Below, piece after piece: positions 6,001 through 24,000 of a stretch of DNA of 64,000 nt. This DNA is from Escherichia coli (GTDB lineage Bacteria; Pseudomonadota; Gammaproteobacteria; Enterobacterales; Enterobacteriaceae). The position numbers were made by a program. Location of the stretch: assembly GCF_024502345.1 (NCBI RefSeq), contig NZ_JALDNN010000003.1; one strand, written 5' to 3'. Numbering within the stretch: the stretch's first letter is position 1; every line of letters starts with the position of its first letter.

Positions 6001-9000
6001 ACTCTAATAACTAAAAATGGCACCCGGAAAATAGAATGAATTTATTTTAAGCTTGCCGAACATGGCTGGCGGCGGAATTAAATTTGGGTAATGACTCCAA
6101 CTTATTGATAGTGTTTTATGTTCAGATAATGCCCGATGACTTTGTCATGCTGCTCCACCGATTTTGAGAACGACAGCGACTTCCGTCCCAGCCGTGCCAG
6201 GTGCTGCCTCAGATTCAGGTTATGCCGCTCAATTCGCTGCGTATATCGCTTGCTGATTACGTGCAGCTTTCCCTTCAGGCGGGATTCATACAGCGGCCAG
6301 CCATCCGTCATCCATATCACCACGTCAAAGGGTGACAGCAGGCTCATAAGACGCCCCAGCGTCGCCATAGTGCGTTCACCGAATACGTGCGCAACAACCG
6401 TCTTCCGGAGCCTGTCATACGCGTAAAACAGCCAGCGCTGGCGCGATTTAGCCCCGACGTATCCCCACTGTTCGTCCATTTCCGCGCAGACGATGACGTC
6501 ACTGCCCGGCTGTATGCGCGAGGTTACCGACTGCGGCCTGAGTTTTTTAAATGGCGGAAAATCGTGTTGAGGCCAACGCCCATAATGCGGGCGGTTGCCC
6601 GGCATCCAACGCCATTCATGGCCATATCAATGATTTTCTGGTGCGTACCGGGTTGAGAAGCGGTGTAAGTGAACTGCAGTTGCCATGTTTTACGGCAGTG
6701 AGAGCAGAGATAGCGCTGATGTCCGGCAGTGCTTTTGCCGTTACGCACCACCCCGTCAGTAGCTGAACAGGAGGGACAGCTGATAGAAACAGAAGCCACT
6801 GGAGCACCTCAAAAACACCATCATACACTAAATCAGTAAGTTGGCAGCATCACCGAAAATAAAATAGAGAGAGTTTTCAATCCGCATGACTTTAAAAAAG
6901 ACAATTTTTAGAAATAAGCCGGATAAAAAAATAGCTTTATCCGGCACTCATATTACAACCAGTTCTTCCGCTTAAAGTACAGATACGGTGCCAGGCCCGC
7001 GAGGATCATAAAGATAATCGCGGCAGGGTAGCCGAAGCTCCACTTCAGTTCTGGCATAAACTCAAAGTTCATGCCATAGCTGGAAGCAACGAGCGTCGGC
7101 GGCAGGAATACCACGGATACCACCGAGAAGATTTTGATGATGCGGTTCTGCTCGATGTTGATAAAACCCATTGCCGCCTGCATCAGGAAGTTCACCTTCT
7201 GGAACAGGGATTCGTTATGCGGCAGCAGGGATTCGATATCTCGCAGGATTTCACGCGCCTGCTCCAGTTGCCCACCCGGTAAACGCGCTTTACGCACCAG
7301 GAAGTTGAGCGCGCGCTGGGTATCCATCAGACACAGGCGAACTTTCCAGCCGATATCTTCCAGTTCCGCCAGCGTGGAGAGCGCCTCGTCGTACTCATCG
7401 CCCTGATGCCCTTCCATAATCACCCGGCTCAACTGCTCCAGGTCGCTATAGATATTTTCAATTTCATCTGCCAACTGTTCGATTTTGGTTTCGAACAGAT
7501 CCAGCAGCAACTCGTAGGCGTTACCGTCTACCATCGACTGGCTACGGGCACGCATACGATACAGACGAAAAGCGGGCAGTTCACGCTCACGCAGAGTAAA
7601 CAGACGACCATCACGGATGGTAAATGCCACAGTGGAGTTACCGGCGTGATCTTCCGCATCTTCAAAGAAGAAGAAGGAGTGAATATGCAGGCCGTCGTCG
7701 TCTTCAAAGAAACGTGCCGATGCTTCGATGTCTTCCAGTTCCGGGCGGGTTGCCAGGCTCTGGCCAAGTTCAGATTGTAAGCGCAGTCGCTCGTCGTCGT
7801 CCGGTTCGACAAGATCAATCCATACTGCATTTACAAGGGGTTGTGACTCTTCGACTTCCAGCCGGGTCAGTCGGTTATTTTCCAGTTGAAATGCGCTCAG
7901 CATGACCGGGACTCCCAATGCTTAAAATATCGGACAGTTCGGTGGGCACACAGAAACAAATTGGGTTTCAGACCATTAAACAGCCTGACTCAGCGCGACG
8001 GGAAAAATTGAGGTCGCTGACAACCGCTAAGGCTATCAGCAAAAAGGGATAGCCTTAGGAGTTGATCCTGGATGACAGGATAGTGAGCCAGTATCTACTG
8101 GGTGTGTCCAAGGCGAATGTCCTCTTAGAGTGATCGTGCGCGCATGTTACGCCAGCAAAATTTTGCCGTCAACACGCAACAGAACACCACAGAACAATAG
8201 TTGAACTTCGCGCTTTTTGGTACTCGTCAAGGTCGCTAACAGGATAAAAAAATCCCACATCCAGGACCTATAATGGCGCATCAGCTACTCATTGGTAAAG
8301 GAATGATCACCTTGAATCTCAAACGGATTTTTCTCGCCCTCACCTTACTTCCCTTGTTTGCTGTTGCCGCTGATGATTGCGCACTCTCAGATCCGACGCT
8401 GACCGTACAGGCGTATACCGTTAATCCTCAAACAGAGCGGGTGAAAATGTACTGGCAAAAAGCCAATGGCGAAGCGTGGGGAACGTTACATGCTCTGCTG
8501 GCGGATATTAATAGTCAGGGTCAGGTGCAGATGGCGATGAACGGCGGCATCTTAAATTTGACGGTTTTTGATATAAAATATAGAAAGAAGGAGGTTTTCT
8601 GAATACCTCCTTCACTGGCGCTCAGTTCGAGAATACGTTAACGCTGTACCGTTTACCGAGCACCTCGGCAGTGGTATCGACAATTTTCTGAATATCATCG
8701 GCAATCGCGGGTTTACTGAATGCGACGGTGTGCAGTTCACCAGCCTGTTCCGCCGTCGCACCATCATGAAAGCGGCTGGCATCGTAAAGCTGGACCCGGA
8801 GTGTCCGGGTATAATCGACATGGCCCATTATTCCTCTCCTGTTCAGTCAGGCGCTATACGCGTTAATAATCACTTTCTTCCGGTTGCGGCTGGGTGACAA
8901 ACTGGTACTTCACCCCATTAGGGACGCCAACGGCTTTTGCTACAGATTCACACAGCAGCGACAGGTCATTCAGAGTCATCGGATATTCGATATCGACGGA

Positions 9001-21000: not shown

Positions 21001-24000
21001 CGGTCTGCTCTTACATCCTACCTGGGCAGCAGCTGGCTACGGTGATCGGGTATTAAAATAGAACCGGTCTGTTTTACCGCAGATTCAACGCCCCGCACCT
21101 AGCGTAAAATCGCCTTTCCCGGATGCCCTCCTTAGTCGTCCGGCACGATGGCGCTACTCCCAGCGATAAGGGGTAAAATAGTCCTCGTTAACAGCAAGAA
21201 ATTCGGTCAGGGAATGCATCGCCTTCGTGTCATATGCCGTCACAATAAAACGGTATCCGTCCACCGTTTCGATGTAGCTGATCCCCCGTGGCGTGCAACT
21301 GGATTTCACAACTTCCGCCGTCATCATAAACTGCCCTTGCGGGAATTCCGGTGACAGGTAGATAAAGCCAGTGGTGGCTGATGACGGGTTGGCATTCATC
21401 AGCACGCTGTTAAATTGCTTTCCGTGCCGCGCCGGAATCAACGCGCTCCCCGCTGTCGCCTGAGTCATCAACTGGCGGATCAGGGTTTCCTCTTTATCTG
21501 AGCTGTAGGCGCGAACATCATTTTCAGCCCCGGAGCGTGAGTAGACGCCGACATGAGCAAGACGTCGGTACTCGTTACGCATATAGGCATGACAGGATGC
21601 ACCGGCTCGCCCCTGAAGAGTGACGCCAAAGTCTTCACATAACATCAGTACCTGGCGCAGGTTTTTGTCATAGACCGTGGCAGAGAGCGCCAGGTTATAG
21701 CTGATGAATGTCAGCTCAAAAACCCGGGTATGTGCGTCACTAAGGTGTGCCTCCATGCGGATCACTGGTTTCTCCGTCATTGGAAACGGCGTACCGGCCA
21801 AGCAGTACGAGGTAACATCGCTAAAACACTCGTCGATCACACTGGCAATGACCGTATCGGCGTCAATGACAGCCGGAGCTGGAACATAAATCTGAAACTG
21901 TCCTTCAGTGCCCGGTTGGATCAGGACGGGGTATAGACGCGGGGAATTGAGTTGTTCGCAGTCGGCATTGATCAGTTCTGTCCAACCGGGTTTTCCGGTG
22001 GGAGCATCAAGGCGAAGACCCAGGTTATCGCAGAAGTCGACGATCTGGCGGGAGTGCTCCACCATCACTGCCCCGGAGAGTGTCAGACCGTGCGTAACCA
22101 TCTGCATCTCACTCGTCCGGGTCTGGGAGTTCTGGGACCAGGGCTGTAATGAAAGCGTCGTCCGACTTAAGGAGGGAATGATGGTTTCATTCAGAGGTTC
22201 AATAAGCTGGCAATGCGCATACAGCCGGGTGGCGAGGAAGTCAAATATGAAGCTTGCCTGTTGTTTTGTGCTGGCCTGAATATAAAACATCGCATCCATG
22301 CCTGAATCCCGGGATGAAATACCGGGTGATGCTGCCAACTTACTGATTTAGTGTATGATGGTGTTTTTGAGGTGCTCCAGTGGCTTCTGTTTCTATCAGC
22401 TGTCCCTCCTGTTCAGCTACTGACGGGGTGGTGCGTAACGGCAAAAGCACCGCCGGACATCAGCGCTATCTCTGCTCTCACTGCCGTAAAACATGGCAAC
22501 TGCAGTTCACTTACACCGCTTCTCAACCCGGTACGCACCAGAAAATCATTGATATGGCCATGAATGGCGTTGGATGCCGGGCAACAGCCCGCATTATGGG
22601 CGTTGGCCTCAACACGATTTTACGTCACTTAAAAAACTCAGGCCGCAGTCGGTAACCTCGCGCATACAGCCGGGCAGTGACGTCATCGTCTGCGCGGAAA
22701 TGGACGAACAGTGGGGATACGTCGGGGCTAAATCGCGCCAGCGCTGGCTGTTTTACGCGTATGACAGGCTCCGGAAGACGGTTGTTGCGCACGTATTCGG
22801 TGAACGCACTATGGCGACGCTGGGGCGTCTTATGAGCCTGCTGTCACCCTTTGACGTGGTGATATGGATGACGGATGGCTGGCCGCTGTATGAATCCCGC
22901 CTGAAGGGAAAGCTGCACGTAATCAGCAAGCGATATACGCAGCGAATTGAGCGGCATAACCTGAATCTGAGGCAGCACCTGGCACGGCTGGGACGGAAGT
23001 CGCTGTCGTTCTCAAAATCGGTGGAGCTGCATGACAAAGTCATCGGGCATTATCTGAACATAAAACACTATCAATAAGTTGGAGTCATTACCGAAATACC
23101 GAAAAGTTTCATTTTTTACCTTAATGGATGAGCGATTTATAATCATGCGCCGACAGGTGGACGTTATGTACGCCATCGTTCCACTCAAAGAATAGCCGAT
23201 ATTTTGAATTAACTCGAATGGAAGAATACCGGTTTGCGGTCATTCTTAAGCGTTCGTACCGCAAACTACCAGATAACAATTCGCGTTCGTTTTTAACATT
23301 ATTTAACGTTTCCAGTCTGCATGAAATCGCATTAATCAGTTCAGCAGGAATGCCTGCCGTGGATTTTCCATTACGGAAAAACTTTTCCAATCGCCTGTCT
23401 TTAAATGAATGGATCATATTTTCCTCCGTAACGAAATGAGTTTAAATAAATAAGAATTAAAAAAGCCTAAATCTAATTTATTACATCCCGAGGATTCTGG
23501 CTGCGACCGTCAGTTGTTTATCACTTAATGGAAATTTGCGTGATAACGTCGACTTCAGGCTGTTCAAAAAACTGTTCTCGCCGTCTTGCTGCGTGATGGC
23601 GTCCACCAGTTCTTGGTGGTTCTGACACCAGAGGTTGAACGCGGAAGTCTTTGATTGAACAGCACGTTGACGCTCTGCTGCCTGAGCGGCTGAGATCTTG
23701 CGAGCAGCTTCTGGGTATATGCGATACAGTGCAGTCAGGGTGTAACAGGTACGGGTAGTGACCAGGCTATAGCCAGTGGCATTACAGGCAATACAGCGGC
23801 TCTTATAAAAGTGATTGCGTTCGCCACGTCCATTGCATTTATTGCAAGTAACACGGTAAATATATTCCCCGGTGCCTTTTACTGAATCAATACACTTAAT
23901 CTTAGCGTTATCGATTGCCATTCCGCTACGGTCAAAGTATTTATCCATTTTTGATTCCTCAGGTTTGGTCTGAAGTAATAATGACAGATTGGCCTCGCTG

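Follow-up and report, generated by a model that had tools for sequence, protein, structure and literature searches.

A conserved one-way gene array between the transfer origin and RepHI1B of IncHI plasmids, read as a possible establishment island

Positions 8622-23948 of a 64,000-nucleotide stretch of Escherichia coli DNA (GCF_024502345.1, contig NZ_JALDNN010000003.1; the whole stretch is called the window below) hold a block of 24 protein genes, all on the minus strand, and one insertion sequence (IS), IS1. The block is 99.8-99.9% identical to IncHI1 plasmids, including R27 and pHCM1 of Salmonella Typhi CT18. The single likeliest explanation, which we put forward tentatively, is that it makes up most of a conserved backbone module of IncHI plasmids, an establishment ('leading-type') island. 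This reading draws on the synteny of the region between IncHI1 and IncHI2 plasmids, on its gene content, on a conserved palindrome that looks like an operator, on membership of the conjugation regulon in published arrays, on dispensability for plasmid stability, and on an order of entry taken by analogy from IncC plasmids. The sequence itself has been public since 2000 and what is new is its reading; no published function for the block was found in the literature searched.

Conservation and extent of the array

At least 80% of the block is contained in 233 plasmid records; in R27 it corresponds to 64810-86489, with Tn10 in its middle. The arrangement as a whole is collinear in an IncHI2 plasmid: 24 of the 31 array proteins of the window have homologues there, at 39-90% identity, and the order runs from RepHI2 through Ig-like genes, the zinc-finger protein, HigB, the 393-aa protein, the DndC-like enzyme, HNH, DUF6012, DUF957, DUF3085 and small acidic proteins to hok, the ParB-like protein and the end of the relaxase operon. 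Because of this collinearity and of the 233 records, the array is considered a real, conserved feature; the collinearity also argues that the module is old and under selection, with some gene turnover. In fact, seven of the 31 genes are IncHI1-specific, the ASCH gene among them (the HNH gene is retained in IncHI2), and IncHI2 has an extra segment of its own, of 4.6 kb, which encodes an orphan site-specific DNA methyltransferase.

This turnover, the insertions that the region has accepted (IS1, IS1-corA, Tn10 and IS5) and the stability of deletions described below would also suit mostly neutral cargo, i.e. phage- or island-derived 'dark matter' genes gathered in a permissive backbone region with no common function. 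We regard this as quite unlikely: 24 genes have kept their order between IncHI1 and IncHI2 and, as shown in the next section, operator palindromes are kept at syntenic positions and expression is regulated. A prophage origin, which the preliminary description had kept in view as a morphogenesis cluster, was rejected: a search of a phage collection with the block returned IS1 matches only, and the block has no morphogenesis or structural phage genes, just accessory-type phage families.

The array lies between oriT/Tra1 and RepHI1B, its genes being directed towards the transfer origin (oriT) and away from RepHI1B; the remainder of the window is IncHI1 backbone, composed of the RepHI1B replicon, Ig-like RSP-type conjugation proteins and the Tra2 region (trhA to trhC). 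The single orientation described previously holds for all 24 protein genes of 8622-23948 once IS1 is set aside, the only plus-strand coding there being that of IS1 (22325-23092). The lower limit at 8622 is instead an artefact, because an IS1-corA insertion (6087-~8600) interrupts the array, which extends past it to about 1225 with seven more minus-strand genes, giving a total of 31. This insertion, recognised by the IS1 ends and by the corA/IS1 annotation of matching records, consists of IS1 (6087-6854) and a captured corA (6953-7918); it is present in R27 too and absent from a second IncHI1 plasmid compared. Further left, an IS5-family element on the minus strand at 1-1100 (transposase open reading frame, ORF, 74-1042; NCBIfam IS5 transposase E = 6e-107) cuts the array short in this plasmid, IncHI1 similarity beginning at 1100; in other IncHI1 plasmids DUF905 and about eight further small genes lie beyond the truncation point. 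In intact IncHI1 plasmids the array meets the end of the traH-traI-traG-traJ operon head-on and the module comprises about 40 genes (R27 R0062-R0112) in a one-way array of about 35 kb. Overlapping stop and start codons, earlier said to be frequent, were overstated: the packing is moderate, not tight, with a median gap of 74 bp, a single overlap (4 nt), seven gaps above 150 bp and a largest gap of 499 bp.

A candidate operator and the HtdA regulon

The 13-bp palindrome AAAAGTWACTTTT was matched 17 times in the window (0.16 expected) and 42 times in R27, 17 of the latter being intergenic. The window copies lie at 2871, 2989, 9548, 15786, 20952, 24663, 38787, 44286 and 54481, with eight others carrying one mismatch. 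Those of the array occupy large gaps: 9548 is upstream of the terminal unit (8622-9347), 15786 is 47 bp upstream of a membrane protein gene, and 20952 is inside the 499-bp gap upstream of the genes at 18474-20654; moreover, 2871 and 2989 are upstream of the ParB-like gene, and 24663 falls in the divergent control region that bounds the array (23949-24768), upstream of a plus-strand gene at 24769-25584. In IncHI2, copies are found in the syntenic intergenic gaps even though the proteins have diverged to as low as 39% identity. From its sequence and distribution, AAAAGTWACTTTT looks like the operator of a plasmid-wide regulator, for which it is a candidate; no description of it was found in the literature searched.

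A parallel is offered by the KorB-type global regulons of IncP plasmids, which likewise have a short palindromic operator placed plasmid-wide, both inter- and intragenic, near transfer and backbone promoters, on plasmids where, as in IncHI1, orphan ParB-HTH (helix-turn-helix) proteins are encoded; the operator sequences are unrelated. IncHI1 plasmids encode three orphan ParB-HTH proteins (R0042 = R27 45191-46348, R0104 and R0153) besides the true ParAB and ParMR, and in published arrays R0042 and R0104 rank with the more highly expressed genes of the backbone. Such orphan proteins are candidates for palindrome binding or for HerB-like host reprogramming.

Regulation of the array is documented by published microarrays of donor cells at 25 C (Gibert 2020), in which R0067-R0075 and R0086-R0093 were derepressed 2-15 fold in an htdA mutant together with the tra operons and with most backbone genes (139 of the 181 expressed), and R0062-R0066, the first array genes, were essentially silent. 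The R numbers were assigned to genes by order, and the 8622-9347 unit is R0091-R0093 on that basis; if this matching is right, derepression is highest just downstream of the palindromes, reaching 7-15 fold for R0071-R0074 and 5-14 fold for R0091-R0093. R27 deletions of 5-7 kb covering the block, including Del5 (67,055-74,086) and its neighbours, are stable in E. coli (Tassinari 2016), which argues that the array is not a maintenance module.

Origin of transfer and order of entry

In R27, oriT lies in the 758-bp gap between traH and trhR (R27 108150-108906), where two copies of AAAAGTWACTTTT (R27 108335 and 108820), located upstream of traH and trhR, enclose a set of direct and inverted repeats, about eight copies of CATAGGGTCAC(T) / AGTGACCCTATG. 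This origin is about 10 kb to the left of window position 1 and about 19 kb from 8622, beyond the traH(mobI)-traI operon. Locating oriT and the relaxase had been proposed as the check on whether the block enters the recipient first; both could be placed, and the answer depends on the polarity adopted: the block enters early by the polarity of MobI-type systems and last by the rule used in surveys.

The relaxase operon, which is read in the direction of the window, starts with traH. The PGAP pipeline annotates this gene as MobI(A/C), and TraH is regarded as MobI-like and oriT-adjacent in the literature. Only one measured polarity of a MobI-type oriT acted on by a MOBH1 relaxase was found, that of IncC/MGIVchHai6, obtained by mobilisation of chromosomal markers (Rivard et al. 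2020): transfer 'progresses downstream of mobI', the genes on the far side of oriT being last. Applied to R27, this polarity would bring in the relaxase operon first and the array next, the plus strand of the window being the transferred strand; the array genes would therefore have the transferred strand as template, which is how leading-region genes are reported to be oriented. By this analogy the block would enter early, with the relaxase operon ahead of it. The array genes do point towards oriT, an orientation that amounts to templating by the transferred strand only where the traH side is the first to enter.

On the other side of oriT in R27, trhR, trhY, trhF, trhH and trhG come first, wrongly oriented, and orientations are mixed after them; no orientation bias is seen there (0-60% per 5-kb bin over the first 30 kb). 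PTU-HI1A and PTU-C are exceptions without leading-region signal under the survey rule, and PTU-HI1A has neither an anti-defence nor a codon adaptation index (CAI) signal on the conventional leading side (Shaw et al.).

If the establishment reading is right, the module would work as follows. At least five conventional double-strand transcription units, each preceded by AAAAGTWACTTTT and all belonging to the HtdA/TrhR-TrhY conjugation regulon, would be carried over when transfer proceeds from oriT into traH(mobI)-traI-traG, the 10-kb relaxase operon entering first and the array following at about 10-45 kb. In a recipient that lacks the repressor HtdA, the units would fire in a burst after complementary-strand synthesis (transitory derepression). 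The proposal resembles the one made for the establishment genes of the pLS20 family (PMC8708921), and classical transitory derepression, where double-strand promoters fire when the repressor is absent; pLS20 belongs to an unrelated plasmid family with unrelated genes, and for IncHI the mode of induction is suggested by the derepression seen in the htdA mutant. A more specific version holds that in MOBH11 IncHI plasmids the relaxase operon enters first and that the array is the real leading region, with new anti-defence or establishment families (candidates would be the DndC-like enzyme, the 74-aa acidic paralogues and the 268-aa acidic protein) driven by operator derepression and not by single-strand promoters; we consider this version unlikely.

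Comparison with known transfer-associated arrays

The leading regions of F (IncF) and ColIb-P9/pESBL (IncI1) (Samuel et al. 2024) have in common with the IncHI array one-way small, mostly uncharacterised genes that read towards oriT, hok/sok-type loci, a ParB-like protein, orphan DNA-modifying enzymes, acidic small proteins and dispensability for maintenance. Unlike them, the IncHI array lies on the side of oriT that holds the relaxase, a 10-kb relaxase operon coming before it, is repressor-controlled in donors, and is devoid of ssb, psiB, ardA, klcA and Frpo-class hairpins. In the table of leading-region families of Samuel et al., DUF905 is the second commonest, and a PAPS-reductase family and an ASCH-containing family are also listed.

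IncC (IncA/C2), another MOBH1 plasmid, has a one-way array of small hypothetical genes with a DndC-like protein (an 817-aa PAPS-reductase, 48% identity) and an orphan cytosine methyltransferase (Dcm), as the IncHI2 version of the array has its orphan methyltransferase. No other array gene was found to be shared with IncC within the 86 kb of IncC examined.

A second one-way cluster is common to IncC (segment 18801-30573) and IncHI1 (R27 168706-179761): both versions encode a VWA protein, DUF3150 and an AAA ATPase, to which IncHI1 adds a toprim protein (encoded elsewhere in IncC) and IncC adds ssb-bet-exo. Should mobI be the first to enter, the IncC cluster, which is 19-31 kb downstream of mobI, would have the transferred strand as its template; the R27 genes of this cluster, R0204-R0210, are the most strongly cold-induced non-tra genes.

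Weighing early against late entry

The opposite order of entry would make the block a trailing accessory backbone segment: the relaxase is transferred last, the block enters near last and has no establishment role, and its genes serve donor-side or vegetative functions, their single orientation coming from operon structure, shared regulation and co-orientation with the RepHI1B replication forks. This alternative, the main rival, seems to us somewhat unlikely, and a substantial body of evidence speaks for it and against an establishment island. To our knowledge, the relaxase is transferred last in every well-studied MOBF/P/Q system. Published surveys (Samuel 2024; Shaw 2026) use a rule by which the leading region is the side opposite the relaxase and the block therefore enters last. 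Neither the nick site of R27 nor its own transfer polarity was found in the literature searched; carrying the polarity over from IncC by oriT homology failed, since the oriT regions of R27 and IncC have no sequence similarity, and TraH gave no match to the NCBIfam MobI model, so that the polarity of R27 is taken from an analogy of gene order only. The block begins 19 kb from oriT, behind the 10-kb relaxase operon. Its genes are expressed and HtdA-controlled in donors, unlike the leading genes of F, and are derepressed together with most of the backbone; the array also reads away from RepHI1B. In IncC the array stands 56-72 kb away from oriT and shares its strand with mobI, which implies that the oriT-proximal position is not conserved for the DndC-like gene, the only one shared.

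The features expected of a leading region were also looked for, with results that mostly belong on the same side. Searches of PHROGs, NCBIfam, Pfam and PADLOC, a PDB sequence search with four block proteins (which returned nothing useful) and two fold searches detected no known anti-defence, SSB, PsiB or Ard protein (ardA, klcA, acr) and no orphan methyltransferase in the array; the anti-restriction, anti-CRISPR or SOS-inhibition content suggested beforehand thus corresponds to no known family. No complete anti-defence system was detected in PTU-HI1A by Shaw et al. either. Folding of 300-nt windows at 20-nt steps, on the plus strand of window positions 1-30000, reached a minimum of -60.2 kcal/mol, within a coding region, against the published threshold of -75 kcal/mol; hairpins of the Frpo class are absent from the scanned region, and single-strand promoters of the F/IncI class are therefore considered absent. 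The folds of intergenic gaps were unremarkable, the hok/sok region excepted; an inverted repeat spaced by 242 nt in the gap 20654-21154 was discarded as a single-strand promoter since it folds modestly (z = -3.0, -69.9 kcal/mol over 499 nt). Sigma-70-like sites are at chance level (20 found, 20.3 expected). The median CAI, on a crude gene call and approximate codon weights, is 0.265 in the array and 0.242 in the rest of R27 (p = 0.03), a weak signal. Six-bp palindromes give a weak signal too: they are slightly depleted in the array (observed/expected ratio 0.72 against a mean of 0.80, 6.6th percentile), and the strongest depletion is in the neighbouring RepHI1B/Ig-like region, outside it. As for GC content, the two sides of oriT are similar.

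The trailing order is opposed by the measured polarity for a MobI-type oriT and MOBH1 relaxase, which goes into mobI, and by the conventional leading side of IncHI1, which lacks the usual leading-region signals. In addition, deletions leave stability intact, so that no vegetative role is seen, and hok/sok, the ParB-like protein and DUF905 are typical of leading regions. The preliminary description of the block as a leading-region-like or anti-defence island is thus upheld in part: orientation to oriT, hok/sok, the ParB-like protein, an orphan modification-type enzyme, the orphan methyltransferase of the IncHI2 array, dispensability for stability, the HtdA regulon and MobI-type polarity agree with it, while the relaxase-last rule, the 19 kb from oriT and the lack of known anti-defence families and Frpo-class hairpins do not.

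Gene content

The content announced from the sequence was largely borne out by family and fold searches, and is described here from the first array gene, next to the divergent region, towards oriT; all features are on the minus strand unless stated otherwise. PHROG families cover 10 of the 24 block proteins, most of these families being without assigned function.

The first gene (23481-23948) encodes a 155-aa protein in which two CxxCxGxG zinc-finger motifs can be read, although Pfam gives only E = 0.02 for it, a weak match. It is followed by an orphan HigB-family toxin (23121-23417; PF05015 E = 3.8e-16, residues 4-90), with no HigA-like HTH antitoxin next to it when the neighbours, the zinc-finger protein and the 393-aa protein, were checked by family searches. 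In R27 the 393-aa gene begins 8 bp downstream of the HigB gene. In the window the two are parted by the plus-strand IS1 (22325-23092, identified by IS1 matches), which is flanked by the 9-bp target duplication GAAATACCG and interrupts the 393-aa gene (21154-22324, its 5' end cut) after about codon 6; this insertion is not neutral. Because IS1 cut the 393-aa gene apparently without harm to the plasmid, either the 393-aa protein is not an antitoxin or the HigB toxin is harmless alone. The PGAP name of the 393-aa protein, 'flavin reductase', is unsupported, and Pfam, PHROG and NCBIfam searches placed it in no family.

Upstream of the DndC-like gene four genes (18474-20654) encode 148-aa acidic, 268-aa acidic (18968-19774), 87-aa acidic and 110-aa proteins. 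The array has seven acidic proteins in all (pI 4.1-4.7), as had been noticed, and under the establishment reading many of the small ones would be candidate inhibitors. For the 268-aa protein, whose family is confined to IncHI-type plasmids, a model with a predicted local distance difference test (pLDDT) score of 78.6 was searched by fold for ArdA/Ocr-type mimics: it had no PDB match and resembled uncharacterised phage proteins only. The protein is apparently made of an ~85-aa domain that also occurs in uncharacterised large-phage proteins, in the phages Cronobacter GAP31, Erwinia Cronus and Salmonella Melville.

A large product of the block is an orphan DndC-like PP-loop enzyme of the PAPS-reductase superfamily (15922-18297, 791 aa), 75% identical to its IncHI2 counterpart. 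It matches the PADLOC models DndC (E = 2e-37) and BrxP (E = 2e-5) and Pfam PAPS_reduct (E = 3e-5), and carries SGGKDS at residue 82 together with a Cys cluster at residues 308-318; the NCBIfam model TIGR03183 gives 113.9 bits, below its cut-off of 290.4. As in the DndC of Dnd phosphorothioation systems, the PP-loop ATP-pyrophosphatase motif and the Cys cluster are present and the best profile matches are to DndC; unlike it, the enzyme scores 113.9 against 290 bits, is about 350 aa longer, has a C-terminal half (~400 aa) that matches no family, and has no DndA, DndB, DndD or DndE partner in the R27 annotation. It may, together with the orphan methyltransferase of IncHI2, provide a protective DNA modification.

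A 154-aa membrane protein (15275-15739) and the second 74-aa acidic paralogue (14964-15188) separate this gene from that of a 243-aa protein (14125-14856; phrog_874 E = 6e-77), which has the 4-nt overlap with its neighbour. Pfam gave no match for it; the ASCH-like assignment is instead supported by Foldseek searches with a predicted model (core pLDDT 80-88, whole-model mean 59.9), which retrieved the ASCH protein 3s9x (E = 9e-5), YqfB (TM 0.76) and PH0355 at a probability of 1.0, confirming an ASCH/PUA-like beta-barrel fold. It has about 8000 prophage homologues, part of them labelled ASCH by NCBI. The structure-based searches proposed at the outset were productive for this protein and not for the 268-aa one, which has no PDB relative. 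A 103-aa protein (13817-14128; phrog_30913 E = 6e-36) is encoded between the ASCH-fold gene and the HNH endonuclease gene (13262-13798; phrog_2118 E = 3e-54), which confirms the nuclease reported before. The HNH and ASCH proteins may be among the products acting on DNA and host systems.

These genes could also be read as a defence or competition island directed against phages or rival plasmids, in which the HNH and ASCH proteins would form a modification-sensing nuclease, the DndC-like enzyme would mark self DNA and HigB/Hok would cause abortive arrest. The ASCH fold belongs to a PUA-like group linked to modified-base recognition, the DndC-like protein matches defence models, the HNH protein is weakly similar to retron- and Septu-type HNH proteins, the array contains toxins, and ten genes have phage homologues. 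Such an island is nevertheless improbable: no complete known system is present, DndA, B, D and E being absent from the R27 annotation, the DndC-like score is under the NCBIfam cut-off, IncHI2 keeps the HNH gene without the ASCH gene, and the remaining PADLOC searches were negative.

Eight genes follow at 9743-13231, designated by their PGAP names in another IncHI1 plasmid and by PHROG families without assigned function: DUF6012 (12623-13231), DUF957 (10588-10877), DUF3085 (10092-10598), a 126-aa multi-pass membrane protein (transmembrane-like segments) and proteins of 86, 82, 73 and 117 aa. The terminal unit of the block, 8622-9347, comprises a 68-aa membrane protein (9141-9347), a 74-aa acidic protein (8863-9087) and a 68-aa distant paralogue of the latter (8622-8828). 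The duplication of the 74-aa protein holds, the two paralogues being 50% identical to one another, with the 68-aa third copy at 20%; membrane proteins, also predicted before, number three, each with 2-5 hydrophobic segments.

Beyond IS1-corA, four small genes (4149-5916; ORFs of 201, 103, 56 and 107 aa, collinear in IncHI2 at 43-77% identity) lead to a complete hok/sok type I toxin-antitoxin locus (3633-3950), with Hok at ~3633-3791 (NCBIfam 121.6 bits against a cut-off of 73, E = 8e-36) and sok RNA at 3789-3950 (Rfam 89.1 bits against a gathering score of 59). In the establishment reading, hok/sok and HigB would serve as addiction factors. The adjacent 401-aa orphan ParB-like HTH protein (1572-2777; R27 R0104) matches phrog_1033, ParB-like (E = 8e-18), and Pfam HTH_ParB (E = 3e-5), and no ParBc domain was detected in it by Pfam; of the elements reported at 1572-3791, hok/sok is confirmed, and the ParB-like gene is confirmed as encoding a ParB-HTH protein. 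The 860-bp gap between the ParB-like gene and hok (2778-3640) folds markedly more stably than shuffled sequence (z = -4.3) and contains two strong terminator-like hairpins, 3536-3567 and ~3605-3632; a small plus-strand ORF at 3261-3461 is the sole annotated gene against the one-way pattern. The last array gene kept in this plasmid (1225-1506, 93 aa) has an exact match in another IncHI1 plasmid and 58% identity in IncHI2.

Conclusions

In Salmonella Typhi, E. coli and Enterobacter, resistance of the multidrug, mcr and tet(X) types is found on IncHI1 and IncHI2 plasmids, and how R27 transfers so well across species was called unclear in a 2026 survey (Shaw et al.). With the conventional polarity, the block would be an ordinary stretch of uncharacterised backbone. 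If the order of entry of MOBH1 plasmids is the reverse of the survey rule, the 'missing' leading region of IncHI1 would be this array, and its placement at the trailing end in surveys could explain the apparent absence of leading-region signal in MOB-H plasmids. In that case its 30-40 uncharacterised genes would constitute a defined candidate list for new establishment and anti-defence functions.

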